A DNA stretch of 64,000 nt from Clostridia bacterium. Its GTDB lineage: Bacteria; Bacillota; Clostridia; Oscillospirales; CAG-272. Location of the stretch: assembly GCA_017416185.1 (NCBI GenBank), contig JAFQDF010000037.1, forward strand, positions 1 to 64,000, in the 5' to 3' direction. A program made the position numbers and the translations under genes. Of this stretch, positions 5,461 through 10,466 are shown one piece after another. Position 1 is the stretch's first letter, and the number at the start of each line of letters is the position of its first letter. A model generated the notes under the pieces. It saw nothing but the letters and a program-made list of their open reading frames with translations. It searched no databases and was not told where the DNA came from.

Positions 5461-5519
5461 AAGTACGGTTTTTGGGACAGTTGATTTTTATAATTAAATA
5501 TAACGAAAGGAGAATGGCT

Positions 5520-6770
5520 ATGGCATACAGCGAGCTTATAAAGAATTTTGAGAATATCCGTGATTATATGCGTGAGTTTTACGTTTACGGCTTCAAGAGC
5601 AGAAACGACTATACCGAAAAGAGCTCACGCTCATACGACGATGAGCGTCGGCGTATGGAAAGCTGGCTTGGGGAGCATATGAGCTTCGTACGTACTCCCG
5701 AGGGTAAAAACGTCTTTATATCTATTGACAGCCGTGTCACGGGACACAATCCGCTCTACAAGGCACTCAAGGCTAAAAGCTTTACCGACAAGGATATCAC
5801 CCTGCATTTTATACTTTTTGACCTACTTCATTCTCCCGAGATATCTCTTTCCCTTTCAGAAATAGTTAAGAATATAGACCGCCGTCTGTCCGAATTTGAC
5901 GAGCCTATGATATTTGACGAATCCACCGTCAGAAAAAAGCTGAAGGAATATACAGAGCAAGGACTGATAGTCACAGAAAAGGACGGCAGAAAAATACTAT
6001 ACAGACGCTCCCCTTCCGTTATGCCTATGGGAATAAGCGATGCTCTGCATTTCTTTTCCGAGGCTGCTCCCGTAGGTACAGTCGGCTCATTTCTGCTCGA
6101 CAAGCAGGGAGAGCATAGGGACAATTTCGGTTTTAAGCATCATTATATCACAAGCGCCCTTGACAGTGACGTTACCGCCAAGCTCTTTATGGCAATGCAC
6201 AAAAAGGCTATCGTATCCGTCTCAAATCATTCACGGTTTGCCCCTACCCCCACGATAAAAAGAATAATTCCCCTTCGTATTTTTATGAGTGTTCAGAACG
6301 GCAGACATCATCTGCTGGCATACGAGGCGGAGTATAATTCTATCAAGGCATTCCGTATTGATTATCTGTCTGACATAAAGATAGAGGAAACTACTCCCCG
6401 CTTTGACGAGCTGAGGGCAGCACTTGATACTATACAGACAAAAATGTGGGGAGTTACGGTAAGAAAGGGACTCTCTGTAGATCAAAATACGGAAAGAGTA
6501 GAGTTTACGGTACGCGTAGAGGATGACGAGGAGCATATAATAAGAAGGCTGCTTCGTGAAAAGCGTATAGGCCGTATAGAAAGACTTGATAAAAATAACT
6601 ACCGCTTTACTGCCGATGTTTACGACATAAGCGAAATGATCCCTTGGATACGTACCTTTATCTGCCGTATAACGAGTCTTGATTTTTCAAACAAGGTCCT
6701 TGAAAAGCAATTTCGGTCAGACATAAAAGAAATGTACCGTATCTACGGTATAGAGGAGGCGGAAATATGA
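5520..6770 (+). CDS. WYL-domain protein 1 (putative wHTH, WYL and C-terminal extension domains)
   Basis: The WYL-like core HHLLAYEAEYNSIKAFRIDYLSDIKIEE, a preceding winged-helix-like segment (DESTVRKKLKEYTEQGLIVTEKDGRKILYRR), and an unknown N-terminal ~120 aa. The ATG at 5520 has an AAAGGAG RBS at 7-nt spacing; the ORF-track start at 5472 is TTG. Confidence 0.6.
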   Translation: MAYSELIKNFENIRDYMREFYVYGFKSRNDYTEKSSRSYDDERRRMESWLGEHMSFVRTPEGKNVFISIDSRVTGHNPLYKALKAKSFTDKDITLHFILFDLLHSPEISLSLSEIVKNIDRRLSEFDEPMIFDESTVRKKLKEYTEQGLIVTEKDGRKILYRRSPSVMPMGISDALHFFSEAAPVGTVGSFLLDKQGEHRDNFGFKHHYITSALDSDVTAKLFMAMHKKAIVSVSNHSRFAPTPTIKRIIPLRIFMSVQNGRHHLLAYEAEYNSIKAFRIDYLSDIKIEETTPRFDELRAALDTIQTKMWGVTVRKGLSVDQNTERVEFTVRVEDDEEHIIRRLLREKRIGRIERLDKNNYRFTADVYDISEMIPWIRTFICRITSLDFSNKVLEKQFRSDIKEMYRIYGIEEAEI

Positions 6771-7678
6771 TATTCAATGAAATATATTCTGCATACTTTA
6801 ATGCCGTAGCCGATATTTTAGCAAAACTTACCGAAGGTGATACCGAGGGCTGTGACCTGTCTGCCATAGTATCAGAACACGCCTTCGGAGAAAGCGCTCT
6901 AACCATCCTCCCCGCCCTTAAAAGCGGTAAATGGCAGTTGGTTCATCCCGATATGACCACCCATATTGCACACAGACCTTCAATGCCCCTGACCGATATA
7001 CAGAAAAGATGGCTTAAAGCCATATCCCTTGACCCGAGAATAGCTCTGTTTGATATATACTTTGAGGGCCTTGAGGACACCGAACCGCTGTTCACCGCCG
7101 AGGATTACGTAATATACGATAAATATTCGGACGGAGACCCCTTTACCGATGAAAGGTATATTTCTCATTTTCGTACTATATTGACAGCCCTGAATCAGGG
7201 ACATAATCTGAAGCTGGAAATATTAAACCGGCGTGGTGAGAGGGTCTATATAAGATGTATCCCCGAAAGGCTGGAATATTCAGAAAAGGACGATAAATTC
7301 CGTCTTGTTACAAGCGGATGCGGCTTTGTCCGTGCCGTCAACCTTGCCCGTATACAGAAATGCAAAATATATTACGGTGACGATATCATACGCTCAAAGG
7401 GGGATGAAAGAAAATGCGACACCCTGCGTCTGAAGATAACGGACGAGCGCAACACTCTTGAAAGATGCCTTATGCATTTTGCACATCTTGAAAAGAACGT
7501 TGAGAGGATAAGCGAAAAGGAGTACATACTCAATATGAGCTACGACATGGCCGATACCCCCGAGATGGTAATACGTGTGCTTTCCTTCGGCCCAACCGTT
7601 GAGGTGATATCACCCGAAAGCTTTAAGGAATTAATAAAAAATAAGTTAAAAGATCAAAAAAGATGCGGATTTTTTTAA
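6767..7678 (+). CDS. WYL-domain protein 2, translationally coupled (ATGA overlap) to WYL protein 1
   Basis: WYL-like segment ERVYIRCIPERLEYSEKDDKFRLVTSGCGFVRAVNLARIQKCKIYY. It is 303 aa with no obvious HTH. Confidence 0.55.
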   Translation: MIFNEIYSAYFNAVADILAKLTEGDTEGCDLSAIVSEHAFGESALTILPALKSGKWQLVHPDMTTHIAHRPSMPLTDIQKRWLKAISLDPRIALFDIYFEGLEDTEPLFTAEDYVIYDKYSDGDPFTDERYISHFRTILTALNQGHNLKLEILNRRGERVYIRCIPERLEYSEKDDKFRLVTSGCGFVRAVNLARIQKCKIYYGDDIIRSKGDERKCDTLRLKITDERNTLERCLMHFAHLEKNVERISEKEYILNMSYDMADTPEMVIRVLSFGPTVEVISPESFKELIKNKLKDQKRCGFF

Positions 7679-7695
7679 GTTCGCATCTTTTTTTC
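7661..7695 (+). terminator. Intrinsic terminator (AGATGCG...CGCATCT plus a T7 run) overlapping the stop codon of WYL protein 2
   Basis: 7-bp stem with a large loop containing the TAA stop, followed by TTTTTTT. Confidence 0.5.
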
Positions 7696-7787
7696 CGTGA
7701 AAAAAACGGTATAACTTAGTAAAATATACTTGCAAGCCGATAAAGTCAGGTATATGAAATTACTACGGTACATAAGGCTATGCCGAA

Positions 7788-7895
7788 ATGTATGCCGTAT
7801 GCTTGCGGCAAATTTGATTGAGTCTTGAAAACTCATAGCAAATTTTAAGGACCTTTCAGGTCCATCTATCGCAGGTTCGAATCCTGCCGTATGTT
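7788..7895 (+). ncRNA. tRNA-like element. It has a canonical T-arm (GCAGG-TTCGAAT-CCTGC), an upstream stem-loop (GGACC-TTTCA-GGTCC), an anticodon-like hairpin (TGAGT-CTTGAAA-ACTCA) and a weak 7-bp acceptor-like pairing (ATGTATG/CGTATGT). This is a non-canonical cloverleaf, possibly a Y-RNA-like or tRNA-mimic RNA, or a tRNA remnant.
   Basis: Folded by hand. The GGTTCGAATCC T-loop lies on the + strand in a 470-nt gap free of plausible CDS between the WYL genes and the SPFH/rtcB pair. There are three G-U pairs in the acceptor, no D-arm and a 13-nt insertion, so it is not a standard tRNA. Confidence 0.3.
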
Positions 7896-8149
7896 GTGAA
7901 ACATATCGCCGGTGGATTGGTATTTTGATGTCGTGCAAAAAAGCACTCTACCCTGATGCAATTACTCTGCCGAAATAAGGTTTACCTTGTCTAAGCAATA
8001 TGTAAATGGCCTTGTCCGAAAACGGATACCGTTGTTCAAATATAAAAGCCAAAATTATTTCCGTTTTTATATGCGTCTGCTTAAGTTTTTGGCCGTCATA
8101 AGCATATGAGTAATTGCAAACGTATATTAACCGTAAAGGAGTATATATA

Positions 8150-9253
8150 ATGATAAAAAAAGTGATAATTAATGAAAATCAAAGAGGGTTTCTCTTCAAG
8201 AACGGAAAATACGTAAAGATGCTTTGTCCCGGTAAGTATTATACAAACGGTACAAAGGAAATAGAAATATCAAATTTAGATATGCCCGTAGATCCTCACA
8301 GATGCTCTGTCGATACACTATTAACCGACAAAGCAGTCGCAGATTCCGTATGCTTAGTAGATGTCGGAGATGAGCAGGTTGCGCTCCATTTCGTCAACGG
8401 AAAATTCAAATCCGCACTTACTCACGGAAAGTATATGTTCTGGTCCGTACAGGATAAACACGAATATAAGATGATAGATATATCTATCACAGAAGCCGAC
8501 GAAAGCGTTCCCGAATACATTTTTTCTATGATCCCCTCAACACTCTATGTAAAAATAGAGGTAGAGGAGTATCATAAAGCATTGCTTTACTTCAATCAAA
8601 GATTTGTAAAGGTTTTAGATGCAGGTACATACTTTTACTGGAGAAATTCTGTCAAAATAAGCGTAAAACACATCGACACCAGACTTACTCAAATGGATAT
8701 TACGGGACAGGAAATACTTACGCAGGACAAAGTTTCACTTCGTATCAATATGATCTGTAACTACCGAGTAACCGATTACGTAAAAATATTTACCGAAATT
8801 GACGATTTTACCGAGCAACTGCATATAATGGCTCAGCTCGCGTTACGTGAATACGTAGGCAAGCACAAGCTGGACGATATCCTTGAAAAGAAAGACGAAA
8901 TGTCCGAATTTGTTTTTAATAAATTAAAAGCAAAGGAAAGTGAATTGTTCGTTAATATTGCAAATGCCGACGTTAAGGATATAATTCTTCCCGGCGAGAT
9001 CAGAGCGATAATGAATACTGTGCTTATCGCAGAAAAACGCGCTCAGGCAAATGTTATAACCCGCCGCGAGGAAGTAGCATCCACAAGATCCCTTTTGAAT
9101 ACGGCTAAGCTTATGGATGAAAACAGTACCTTATATAAGCTTAAAGAGCTTGAATACGTAGAACGCATCTGTGAAAACATCGGTAATATCAATCTCAACG
9201 GTAACACCGACGTACTGTCCCAGCTTACAGGTATCCTGAGAGGCGGTGCTTAA
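8150..9253 (+). CDS. SPFH/band-7 (stomatin/prohibitin/flotillin/HflKC) domain protein with a duplicated N-terminal SPFH-start motif
   Basis: Core match to SPFH: VNIANADVKDIILPGEIRAIMNTVLIAEKRAQANVITRREEVASTRSLLNTAKLMDEN. Two SPFH-start-like segments are present (VIINENQRGFLFKNGKYVKMLCPGKYY and VEEYHKALLYFNQRFVKVLDAGTYFYW). The ATG at 8150 has an AAGGAG RBS. Confidence 0.7.
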   Translation: MIKKVIINENQRGFLFKNGKYVKMLCPGKYYTNGTKEIEISNLDMPVDPHRCSVDTLLTDKAVADSVCLVDVGDEQVALHFVNGKFKSALTHGKYMFWSVQDKHEYKMIDISITEADESVPEYIFSMIPSTLYVKIEVEEYHKALLYFNQRFVKVLDAGTYFYWRNSVKISVKHIDTRLTQMDITGQEILTQDKVSLRINMICNYRVTDYVKIFTEIDDFTEQLHIMAQLALREYVGKHKLDDILEKKDEMSEFVFNKLKAKESELFVNIANADVKDIILPGEIRAIMNTVLIAEKRAQANVITRREEVASTRSLLNTAKLMDENSTLYKLKELEYVERICENIGNINLNGNTDVLSQLTGILRGGA

Positions 9254-9260
9254 CAATAAA

Positions 9261-10466
9261 ATGATAGAGATAAAAGGAAATTTTAATACCGCCCTCTGCT
9301 TTACAGACAGTGTGGAGGGCTTGGCATACGAGCAGATCAAAACGGTCTGCGATATAGAGGCGTTTGCCGATAATAAGATAAGAATAATGCCCGACGTTCA
9401 CGCAGGTGTGGGCTGTACCATAGGTACGACGATGACTCTTACCGACAAGGTAGTTCCCAATATGGTAGGCGTGGATATCGGCTGCGGTATGTATACCGTA
9501 GAGCTCGGAAAGATCGATATTGACCTTGAAGCATTTGATACCGCCGTTCATACTATTCCCTGCGGCAAGGCTGTATGGGAGGGCAGAAAGGAGCGCTTTG
9601 ACCTTGAGGAGCTGCGCTGCTTCCGTGCGCTTAAGGATTCAAAAAGACTGGAAAGAAGTATCGGAACCCTTGGAGGCGGAAACCACTTTATAGAGATAGA
9701 TAAGGACGAAGATGGCAACAAGTACCTCGTTATCCATTCCGGAAGCCGTAACCTCGGCACTCAGGTGGCGGAGTACTATCAGTCTATTGCCGTTGATCTT
9801 AATATGGGCAAGGAGGAGTACTTTGACCGCCGTGAGGAGATAATCCGCACCTACAAAGCTGAGGGCAGACGCTCTGAAATTCAGGATGTCTTGAAGGCTA
9901 TGGCAAAGGAGTGGAAGGATAAGGAGCCTACACTTCCCCGCGGACTCTGCTATCTCTACGGCAGATTTATGGAGGATTATATCCACGATATAGACATCTG
10001 TCAGCGCTTTGCTACCCGCAACCGTGAGAAGATGGCAGAGATAATTCTTGAGCTGACTGGAATAGCGGCGGCACATTCCTTCCATACGATACACAATTAT
10101 ATCGACGTTGAGGCTATGATACTCCGTAAGGGCTCTGTGTCTGCAAAGGCAGGCGAGAAGCTCCTTATCCCCATCAATATGCGTGACGGCAGCCTTATCT
10201 GTATCGGCAAGGGAAACTCTGACTGGAATTTTTCCGCACCCCACGGTGCAGGCAGACTTATGAGCCGTACCGATGCCTTTGAGAAGCTGACTATGGCAGA
10301 GTATGAGGCGCAGATGTCAGGTATCTACTCCACCTGTATCAACACCTTTACTCTTGACGAGTCACCTATGGCATACAAGTCTATGGAGCATATAGTATCC
10401 AACATCACTCCCACCGCCGATATAGTTACACATATAAAGCCTATATACAATTTCAAGGCAAATTAA
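9261..10466 (+). CDS. rtcB: RtcB-family RNA 3'-phosphate/5'-OH ligase (short ~400-aa form)
   Basis: Motifs MPDVHAGVGCTIG, GGGNHFIEI and NFSAPHGAGR (the GMP-histidine motif). An alternative GTG start at 9246 would overlap the SPFH gene by 8 nt. Confidence 0.8.
   Translation: MIEIKGNFNTALCFTDSVEGLAYEQIKTVCDIEAFADNKIRIMPDVHAGVGCTIGTTMTLTDKVVPNMVGVDIGCGMYTVELGKIDIDLEAFDTAVHTIPCGKAVWEGRKERFDLEELRCFRALKDSKRLERSIGTLGGGNHFIEIDKDEDGNKYLVIHSGSRNLGTQVAEYYQSIAVDLNMGKEEYFDRREEIIRTYKAEGRRSEIQDVLKAMAKEWKDKEPTLPRGLCYLYGRFMEDYIHDIDICQRFATRNREKMAEIILELTGIAAAHSFHTIHNYIDVEAMILRKGSVSAKAGEKLLIPINMRDGSLICIGKGNSDWNFSAPHGAGRLMSRTDAFEKLTMAEYEAQMSGIYSTCINTFTLDESPMAYKSMEHIVSNITPTADIVTHIKPIYNFKAN

Follow-up and report, generated by a model that had tools for sequence, protein, structure and literature searches.

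The window analyzed here, i.e., the whole stretch of 64,000 nt of contig JAFQDF010000037.1 (GCA_017416185.1, forward strand), belongs to a Clostridia bacterium of the CAG-272 lineage within Oscillospirales and contains a tRNA-like element upstream of an SPFH (Band-7) gene and an rtcB gene. [quoted passage not shown] According to a passage in a 2018 bioRxiv preprint from the Wolin laboratory (10.1101/312249), b7a-tRNA was predicted by Burroughs and Aravind in 2016 as an RNA adjoining Band-7 and RtcB; it is said there to 'strongly resemble an authentic tRNA', to have been proposed in 2016 to do for Band-7 what Y RNA does for Ro, and to have been without experimental validation as of that preprint. 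A full-text literature search for 'b7a-tRNA' returned no other paper in the library searched, b7a-tRNA is absent from Rfam, and a 2026 paper that places an SPFH gene within the Pseudomonas aeruginosa rtc locus leaves an RNA unmentioned. As a class, the tRNA-mimic idea is not new, and the copy in the window is a structural variant of a predicted, apparently unstudied RNA family. This assignment to a family is much more secure than the mechanism. Bacterial RtcB repair operons are widespread, and little is understood of what they act on and which cofactors they use. The additions made here are a signature hairpin of 31 nt with which the family can be retrieved across phyla, a minimal conserved core that joins the 5' hairpin and T-arm to the closed acceptor hairpin, the GG hairpin and the capped hairpin, and a strongly covarying second domain of the leader that is in no database.

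Modules of the tRNA-like element and their conservation

The T-arm of the element, GCAGG / TTCGAAT / CCTGC, was read at 7871–7887 on the + strand, which is the coding strand of the cassette, as a first-pass annotation of the same DNA had noted. This 17-nt sequence occurs once in the window even when 2 mismatches are allowed, with 0.02 occurrences expected from shuffled sequences. A protein-guided search with the SPFH protein gave 26 Oscillospirales/Eubacteriales loci at 59–96% identity. The T-loop GGTTCGAATCC or a close variant was found 243–320 nt 5' of the SPFH start in 22 of these 26 genome loci, and ARAGORN called no tRNA at the position of the element in any of the 26. The conserved block exceeds the bounds 7788–7895 that the first-pass annotation had given to the element; it takes in a 5' hairpin, then variable arms and the T-arm, then a hairpin that follows the T-arm directly, and a conserved GTGGNTTGG stretch. 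RNAalifold and pair counts revealed two-sided compensatory changes in three helices, i.e., the 5' hairpin, the T-arm and the post-T hairpin. In the T-arm stem, GC changed to AU in 5 sequences and CG to UA in 2. Compensatory base changes upstream of rtcB in related strains, which had been named as a check on the element, are abundant. In addition, the region 7760–7960 folds better than its shuffles (z = -2.7).

The conserved tRNA-like part of the RNA is about 7765–7946, with all of its modules on the + strand. It begins with a family-specific 5' hairpin at 7765–7798, in which 7765–7769 pair with 7794–7798, 7770–7773 with 7788–7791, and GGC at 7776–7778 with GCC at 7782–7784. Two variable arms follow. 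The minimum-free-energy fold gives the first (7810–7845) an outer stem AAATTTG/CAAATTT (7810–7816/7839–7845), an inner stem GAGT/ACTC (7820–7823/7831–7834) and the loop CTTGAAA; across relatives the outer stem reads ATCTG/CAGAT or ATTTG/CAAAT. The hairpin with the CTTGAAA loop is thus present (7820–7834), but its description as anticodon-like did not hold up: neither sequence nor length of the loop is conserved, so that it is a variable arm, and the arm is missing altogether in minimal copies such as L032, L036, L085 and L137. The second, GGACC-TTTCA-GGTCC at 7849–7863, stands 5' of the T-arm as had been described; its pairs form in 88% of the cells of alignment A1, and it too is missing in minimal copies. 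Pair counts for the variable arms taken from the MAFFT alignment are unreliable, as the arms are out of register there.

Abutting the T-arm on its 3' side is the acceptor-like hairpin (AS), GTATGTT-GTGA-AACATAT with additional C-G and G-C closing pairs (7888–7908), which is closed by its own loop. In alignment A1, 100% of its cells are paired, with double changes at 3 pairs. The next module is a small D-like hairpin, CCGG-TGGA-TTGG (7909–7920), carrying in its loop two guanines that are invariant in alignments A1 and A2. A capped hairpin, GTGC-AAAAAA-GCAC (7933–7946), is the counterpart of the tetraloop hairpin that relatives have after the D-like hairpin; in the clade of the window it stands 12 nt 3' of the latter. 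We propose that the capped hairpin is an analogue of the anticodon arm without an anticodon, and that the GG of the D-like hairpin may partner the T-loop, making a tRNA elbow.

This arrangement differs from the one first suggested, in which a G-U-rich acceptor-like helix of 7 bp (7788–7794/7889–7895) closed the domain. Across 22 relatives, the pairs of that helix form in 94.8% of cells, with 4 sequences breaking the terminal pair. The helix is mutually exclusive with 7770–7773/7788–7791 of the 5' hairpin and with 7888–7895/7900–7908 of the post-T hairpin, two local hairpins that covary better, and it is not the best-supported fold. Because these two hairpins are better supported, the bounds 7788–7895 begin and end inside conserved hairpins and cut both of them. 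Likewise, the absence of a D-arm is correct inside those bounds, but the D-like GG-loop hairpin lies just outside them.

Two further pairings were considered. A closing stem of our own, P1 (7762–7768/7909–7917), showed no double compensatory change, has a mismatch in L019 and is missing from the L047 group; it was dropped, and the local GG-loop hairpin covaries instead. Pairing of TTTGG of the D-like hairpin with CCAAA of the second leader domain (described below) showed no covariation on inspection. In most of the Oscillospirales relatives, a second T-arm-like hairpin, GGGG-TTCAACT-CCCC, was observed 5' of the main T-arm (for example at 1056–1070 of L006, GGGGTTCAACTCCCC). It is missing in the window and in L001, L002 and L025, and may be what is left of the first tRNA-like unit in the two-unit form of high-GC loci.

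Two architectures of one family and their association with SPFH genes

Metagenome contigs were scanned with the motif of the 5' hairpin alone, YGGTRCRYNNGGNNNTKCCNNNRYGTATGYC, a 31-nt pattern with 15 fixed and 8 two-fold positions, which gave at least 120 loci. Among the matches listed, to which the counts in this paragraph refer, a T-loop lies 60–200 nt 3' of the hairpin in 104. An SPFH gene follows 3' on the same strand in 65 of the 68 independent loci with at least 900 nt of downstream sequence, and in a 66th locus it is interrupted by the contig end; RtcB comes next in 31 of the 40 loci that extend 3 kb or more in that direction. The samples of origin include gut, soil, rhizosphere, marine and wastewater, and the identity of the SPFH protein in these loci is as low as about 25–35%. 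The association of a tRNA mimic with SPFH-rtcB, noted at first for the window, is therefore conserved. The 5' hairpin itself covaries across 87 distinct low- and high-GC copies: one pair is GC in 53, AT in 31, GT in 2 and AC in 1, and a second is CG in 68, AT in 16, TG in 2 and AG in 1, at positions that are free or nearly free in the pattern.

The copies retrieved fall into two architectures. All 44 distinct Clostridia-type copies can be parsed as T-arm, 0–3 nt, closed hairpin, 0–3 nt, and GG-loop hairpin. Their closed hairpin has 5–9 bp and shows 28 distinct stem sequences, all of them paired; the GG-loop hairpin has 3–5 bp, with 13 distinct stems in the 44 copies (e.g., CCAG/TTGG, TTTG/TAAA, ATTT/AAAT and GTTT/GAAC). 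A capped hairpin of 4–8 bp, with 21 distinct stems and often topped by a GNRA or UUCG tetraloop, was found 0–7 nt after the D-like hairpin in 44 of 46 Clostridia-type copies. High-GC loci have the 5' hairpin followed by two abutting, near-canonical cloverleaf units, both of which are called by ARAGORN and both of which score above the Rfam tRNA threshold (40–64 bits). The tandem units share 1–2 nt at their junction in L044, L056 (136–348), L106, L124, L130, L138 and about 40 others. Variable or malformed anticodons (Ile, Tyr, Asn, Cys, Lys, Met, Gln, or loops of 6 nt) are a feature of these units, which annotation pipelines could take for ordinary tRNA genes.

Both architectures share the 5' hairpin motif, a T-arm 60–200 nt 3' of it, and synteny with SPFH. 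Judged by the common 5' hairpin and the synteny, the window copy is homologous to the cloverleaf-type copies. Since the anticodon loops of the cloverleaf form vary, the reduced form has a tetraloop, and the T-loop and GG loop are invariant, the comparison suggests that selection acts on mimicry of the elbow and of the acceptor/T minihelix, and not on decoding. Conservation of the minimal core points in the same direction, with the tRNA elbow and minihelix likely to be under selection and the anticodon not.

The same arrangement as in the metagenome loci was found on a Burkholderia stagnalis replicon (L147, NZ_CP156686.1, about 2224300–2224700). The PLSDB record of this replicon carries no RNA annotation there, and other plasmid blastn matches were mostly ordinary tRNAs. 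In the Burkholderia copy the 5' hairpin is expanded, and the sequence TGGCAC-N5-TCGCT upstream of the copy resembles a sigma-54 promoter. Such a sequence suggests control of the RtcR type in Proteobacteria, as opposed to control by a pair of WYL-domain regulators in Clostridia. In phage collections there was no match by blastn, and the one match to the pattern looked like chance. One metagenome locus, L101 (about 1309–1495, oriented), is cut off right after the T-arm by unrelated sequence with a strong terminator-like hairpin, AAAAGAGACGTGCA...TGCACGTCTCTTTT, and has no SPFH gene after it, which looks like a rearrangement or an insertion at the locus.

A perfect T-arm without a cloverleaf also resembles a tRNA remnant, and the first-pass annotation had considered a decayed, functionless tRNA gene or fragment at an old integration site. 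T-arm decay does occur in the family, in L015 and L023. Against such a remnant, the position 5' of SPFH is kept from Clostridia to Burkholderia, and position, strand and flanking modules persist where SPFH identity is just about 25–35%. Compensatory changes uphold five or more helices, and the ranges of GC content and protein divergence exclude an artefact of recent common ancestry. Among the neighbors of the cassette in the window, identified by Pfam as DegV, PlsY, a 3H-HTH regulator, MatE and a nitroreductase, no integrase or mobile-element gene flanks it, and phage matches are lacking as well. We therefore consider decay at an integration site to be close to negligible as an explanation.

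The leader, its transcription unit and the possible role of the RNA

The RNA lies in an intergenic gap of 470 nt (7679–8149) between a regulator pair and the SPFH and RtcB genes, all of which are on the + strand. The regulators are two tandem WYL/WCX-domain genes at 5472–6770 and 6767–7678 (432 and 303 aa), borderline in Pfam, as all scores are under the gathering cut-offs (WYL 20.1 bits against 21.8; WCX 16.9 and 23.8 against 23.9). Both genes stand 5' of the RNA in most Clostridia-type metagenome loci with enough upstream DNA, according to tblastn. The sequence of the intrinsic terminator of the upstream WYL/WCX gene, GATGCGGA...TTCGCATC followed by a T-run (7662–7694, + strand), marks the 5' limit of the RNA-SPFH-RtcB unit; in a relaxed Rfam search, it matched the terminator portion of an unrelated leader model.

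A consensus scan predicted a sigma-70 promoter at 7697–7725 on the + strand, with the -35 element GTGAAA at 7697–7702, a 17-nt spacer, and the -10 element TAAAAT at 7720–7725, which implies a predicted transcription start near 7732. Relatives have a conserved extended -10, TTGGTAAAAT, equally far from the 5' hairpin, where the window reads TAGTAAAAT. A first candidate, with -35 TTGCAA at 7730, was replaced by GTGAAA/TAAAAT, which is backed by the extended -10 of the relatives. The palindrome CTTGCAAG at the predicted start (7729–7736) is kept as GCTTGCAAGG in most Clostridia-type loci. It directly follows the extended -10, both in the window and at the equivalent positions in L004–L026, and is a candidate for the operator that the upstream pair of WYL-domain regulators would bind. 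The terminator scan between the RNA and SPFH found nothing convincing, with two weak matches that both lie within RNA hairpins, which speaks for co-transcription of the RNA with SPFH.

The SPFH/Band-7 gene (8150–9253, + strand; 367 aa, stomatin-like, Pfam Band_7 1.8e-29) starts 230 nt 3' of the D-like hairpin on the same strand, with its ATG at 8150 and the ribosome-binding site AAGGAG at 8136–8141 (+ strand, from sequence). Its reading frame overlaps by 8 nt that of the RtcB gene (9246–10466, + strand; 406 aa, Pfam RtcB 2.6e-55). The closest solved structures to the SPFH protein are stomatin 16-mer assemblies. Residues 1–135 (8150–8554 of the window) hold an N-terminal region of ~130 aa where the membrane hairpin would stand. 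Residues 6–34 give a second, weak match to the beginning of the Band_7 profile (E = 0.089), a hint of an SPFH segment that was duplicated and has degenerated. No RNA-binding domain was detected in the N-terminal 135 aa, and no membrane anchor was evident there by eye. Two SPFH homologues, P0002 and P0003 (57–58% identity), have 637–638 aa compared with the usual 366 aa, and only a Band_7 domain is recorded for them; the extra length may stem from duplication or fusion.

The space between the tRNA-like part and the SPFH gene is occupied by a second structured region, leader domain II (~160 nt, 7958–8117, + strand), closed by a helix between GCAATTACTC (7958–7967) and GAGTAATTGC (8108–8117). The domain encloses a rod-like nested structure of ~150 nt with the conserved core sequences GCCTTGYCCGAAAACGGATACCG, GCCAAAAG, CTTTCCGC and CGGCCGC, and its internal loops have conserved sequences. 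The two arms of the closing helix covary extensively in 40 distinct copies (e.g., CGTTATCATTC/GAATGATAGCG and GCGATTGTCCC/GGGCAATCGC), and nearly every pair of the RNAalifold structure occurs as 3–6 standard pair types. No Rfam family matches domain II, which ends ~20 nt before the ribosome-binding site of the SPFH gene. Leaders measure 340–490 nt in Clostridia-type loci and about 510–900 nt in high-GC loci. Thus, the structured conserved RNA is the whole leader of ~390 nt, and the T-arm is just one part of it. High-GC leaders contain another long-range helix, GGAAACGCCCC/GGGGCGTTTCC, that spans ~230–290 nt and is followed by a T-run (L044, L056, L124 and L130). This helix lies 3' of the second tRNA-like unit, resembles a terminator with a stem that closes a whole domain, and may be an attenuator upstream of SPFH.

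These features also fit a purely cis-acting leader, in which the ~390-nt 5' untranslated region would control elongation, translation or stability of the SPFH-rtcB transcript without any free small RNA. Such control could take the route of autoregulation by mimicry, with RtcB, SPFH or a tRNA-binding factor as the regulator (as for ThrRS), or that of sensing a ligand or RNA damage. The RNA shares the strand of the operon, the sequence between it and SPFH lacks a convincing terminator, conservation and covariation continue through domain II almost to the ribosome-binding site, leader length is constrained in both types of loci, and the helix and T-run of the high-GC leaders are attenuator-like. 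However, no known riboswitch, T-box or leader family matches, the closing helix of domain II does not overlap the ribosome-binding site, and two full tRNA-like units with freely varying anticodon loops are hard to explain by control in cis. The analogous RNAs of the rsr-yrlBA-rtcBA operon are Y RNAs that act in trans, according to the passage cited above (10.1101/312249). Roles in cis and in trans are also compatible, since the RNA could be excised from the leader. Because the RNA is continuous with the mRNA and the high-GC leaders have an attenuator-like feature, we retain exclusive action in cis as a doubtful but appreciable possibility. Even as a leader alone, the RNA would be an unusual tRNA-mimicking regulatory RNA.

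In the trans-acting role that we propose, the RNA would be transcribed together with SPFH and rtcB from the promoter near 7697–7725, under the two upstream WYL regulators. The T-loop and the GG loop would form a tRNA elbow stacked on the acceptor/T minihelix, and just the 'top half' of a tRNA would be mimicked. The mimic would then be the RNA partner of the repair module, docking on the stomatin-like SPFH oligomer and/or on RtcB in the way Y RNA docks on Ro60. It would either scaffold RtcB near damaged tRNAs or serve as bait, the cleavage and re-ligation of which would report a tRNA-directed attack. By analogy with Ro-Y RNA, and consistent with the 2016 proposal as cited in the preprint passage, we favor the scaffold/cofactor version over any other single mechanism, at a probability still well below one half.

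A more far-reaching form of this proposal takes the whole ~390-nt leader as one large, structured and uncatalogued RNA, either as a subunit of an SPFH-cage/RtcB repair particle in the cytoplasm, which would be a bacterial counterpart of the Ro-Y RNA or vault ribonucleoproteins (RNPs), or as a toxin bait that is cut by tRNA-targeting toxins, is re-ligated by RtcB and switches the operon via the WYL regulators. We regard it as rather unlikely and put it forward tentatively. If it is true, domain II and the permuted Clostridial architecture would represent RNA biology beyond the 2016 prediction. If the RNA partners a soluble stomatin-like oligomer, an RNA-linked role for SPFH proteins would follow.

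Several points weigh against the assignment to b7a-tRNA and against the proposed role. The window copy fails all existing models: ARAGORN found no tRNA or tmRNA in the window, the Rfam tRNA model (RF00005) gives 18.5 bits where its gathering score is 29, in an alignment that lacks the D-arm and has 31 nt inserted, and the Rfam YrlA model (RF02553) scores 14.6 bits against 69 (E = 1.7, over 7835–7942). The equation of the element with b7a-tRNA rests on a one-paragraph citation in 10.1101/312249 and on the matching gene context. Two loci, L015 and L023, keep the 5' hairpin and domain II and have lost the T-arm; therefore, the tRNA-like module is not required in every locus. RtcB was not detected by tblastn after SPFH in 9 of the 40 loci with sufficient downstream sequence among the matches listed (L036, L043, L085, L087, L088, L094, L107, L129 and L137), so the RNA is tied to SPFH more than to RtcB. 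In these nine loci the RNA-SPFH pair may work with another ligase or alone. Moreover, we infer expression, processing and protein contact of the RNA from sequence. The contiguity of the RNA with the mRNA, structured up to the ribosome-binding site, fits a cis-regulatory leader equally well.

Some further details concern these loci and models. The T-arm is deleted in L015 (3580–3760) and decayed in L023 (2610–2800), and the leader and the SPFH gene remain in both. L023 and L014 come from one metagenome-assembled genome, which appears to have the cassette twice, with one copy degenerating. Candidate genes replacing RtcB in the nine loci were set aside as unreliable, given the spurious open reading frames (ORFs) in high-GC contigs. 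At gathering score, Rfam gave no match in the window or in the Clostridia-type loci, and in the relaxed search the tmRNA and T-box models gave none at E up to 10 in 7640–8160. The first-pass annotation was thus right that no standard cloverleaf can be folded; of the checks it had named, the Rfam models for tRNA and YrlA stayed below threshold and tmRNA gave no match, while the T-arm proved to be conserved in relatives.

Comparison with known RNAs

When compared with canonical tRNAs, the window RNA has a T-arm with the consensus GGTTCGAATCC loop region, next to it a helix placed as the acceptor would be, and a loop with GG at the site of action of a D-loop. In contrast to a canonical tRNA, it forms its acceptor as a closed hairpin instead of pairing its 5' and 3' ends, its modules are permuted, and it has neither an anticodon loop nor a CCA or discriminator context.

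YrlA RNAs are arranged in the order T stem-loop, acceptor stem, D stem-loop and anticodon (TSL-AS-DSL-AC), and two guanines of their D-loop dock on the T-loop (Rfam RF02553 consensus; Wang et al. 2018). The crystal structure of YrlA has the L-shape of tRNA, and most YrlA RNAs are called circularly permuted tRNAs with loop-closed acceptor stems (Wang et al. 2018); the 5' motif GNCGAAN0-1G of YrlA has been linked to Rsr binding (Chen et al. 2014, PMC4201824; Wang et al. 2018). The window RNA shares with YrlA the permuted order of T, loop-closed acceptor and D modules, as do all 44 of the Clostridia-type copies. Both have two guanines able to dock on a T-loop of the TTCGAAT type, both are without a CCA end, and both stand in an operon with RtcB. 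However, the D stem-loop of the window RNA is far smaller (3–5 bp with a loop of 3–7 nt) and is without the YrlA D sequence GCUCA...GGUAGAGC, there is no long 5'/3' stem and no conserved Ro-binding motif, and the partner is SPFH and not Ro. The resemblance to YrlA that had been suggested for the element holds for its architecture and does not extend to membership of that family.

A bona fide YrlA RNA acting with a Ro60 (Rsr) encoded elsewhere in the genome would have the same T, AS, D order. It could also explain the weak alignment to RF02553, which is full-length, and in the preprint passage YrlA is said occasionally to adjoin Band-7 genes, just as b7a-tRNA sometimes adjoins Rsr (10.1101/312249). 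The score and E-value of that alignment nevertheless speak against YrlA. The GNCGAAN0-1G motif is not conserved; the stretch closest to it is GCCGAAAT in the window and GCCGTGGC in high-GC copies, and relatives read GCCGACGT or GCCAAAGT. The 5'/3' closing stem is unsupported, there being no double compensatory change in P1, whereas the D-like hairpin covaries, and throughout the metagenome loci the RNA tracks SPFH. No TROVE domain was detected in the ten window ORFs of 420–851 aa that were scanned, in line with the earlier description of a tRNA mimic without Ro; of six other window ORFs of at least 380 aa, four were in the Pfam scan and two fell outside the Ro/TROVE check. A genuine YrlA is, in our judgment, very improbable here.

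The vault RNP combines the major vault protein, with its SPFH-like shoulder domain, TEP1, with its TROVE domain, and vault RNAs. There is no sequence relation to the locus in the window, and the vault analogy does not imply that SPFH cages or binds the window RNA. By analogy only, each would join an oligomeric protein of the SPFH type, acting as cage or scaffold, to a non-coding RNA that is small and structured.

In comparison with b7a-tRNA as described, the window copy is not strongly tRNA-like, as seen in the negative ARAGORN result and in its RF00005 score, and it has one permuted module where the cloverleaf form has two tandem units. It shares with b7a-tRNA its tRNA-like character and its position adjoining a Band-7/SPFH gene and RtcB, and its high-GC relatives, which have the same 5' hairpin and synteny, are strongly tRNA-like. 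If the proposed partnership with SPFH is true, the logic of a scaffold protein combined with a tRNA-like RNA, known from Ro-Y RNA and vaults, would extend to a new protein family.

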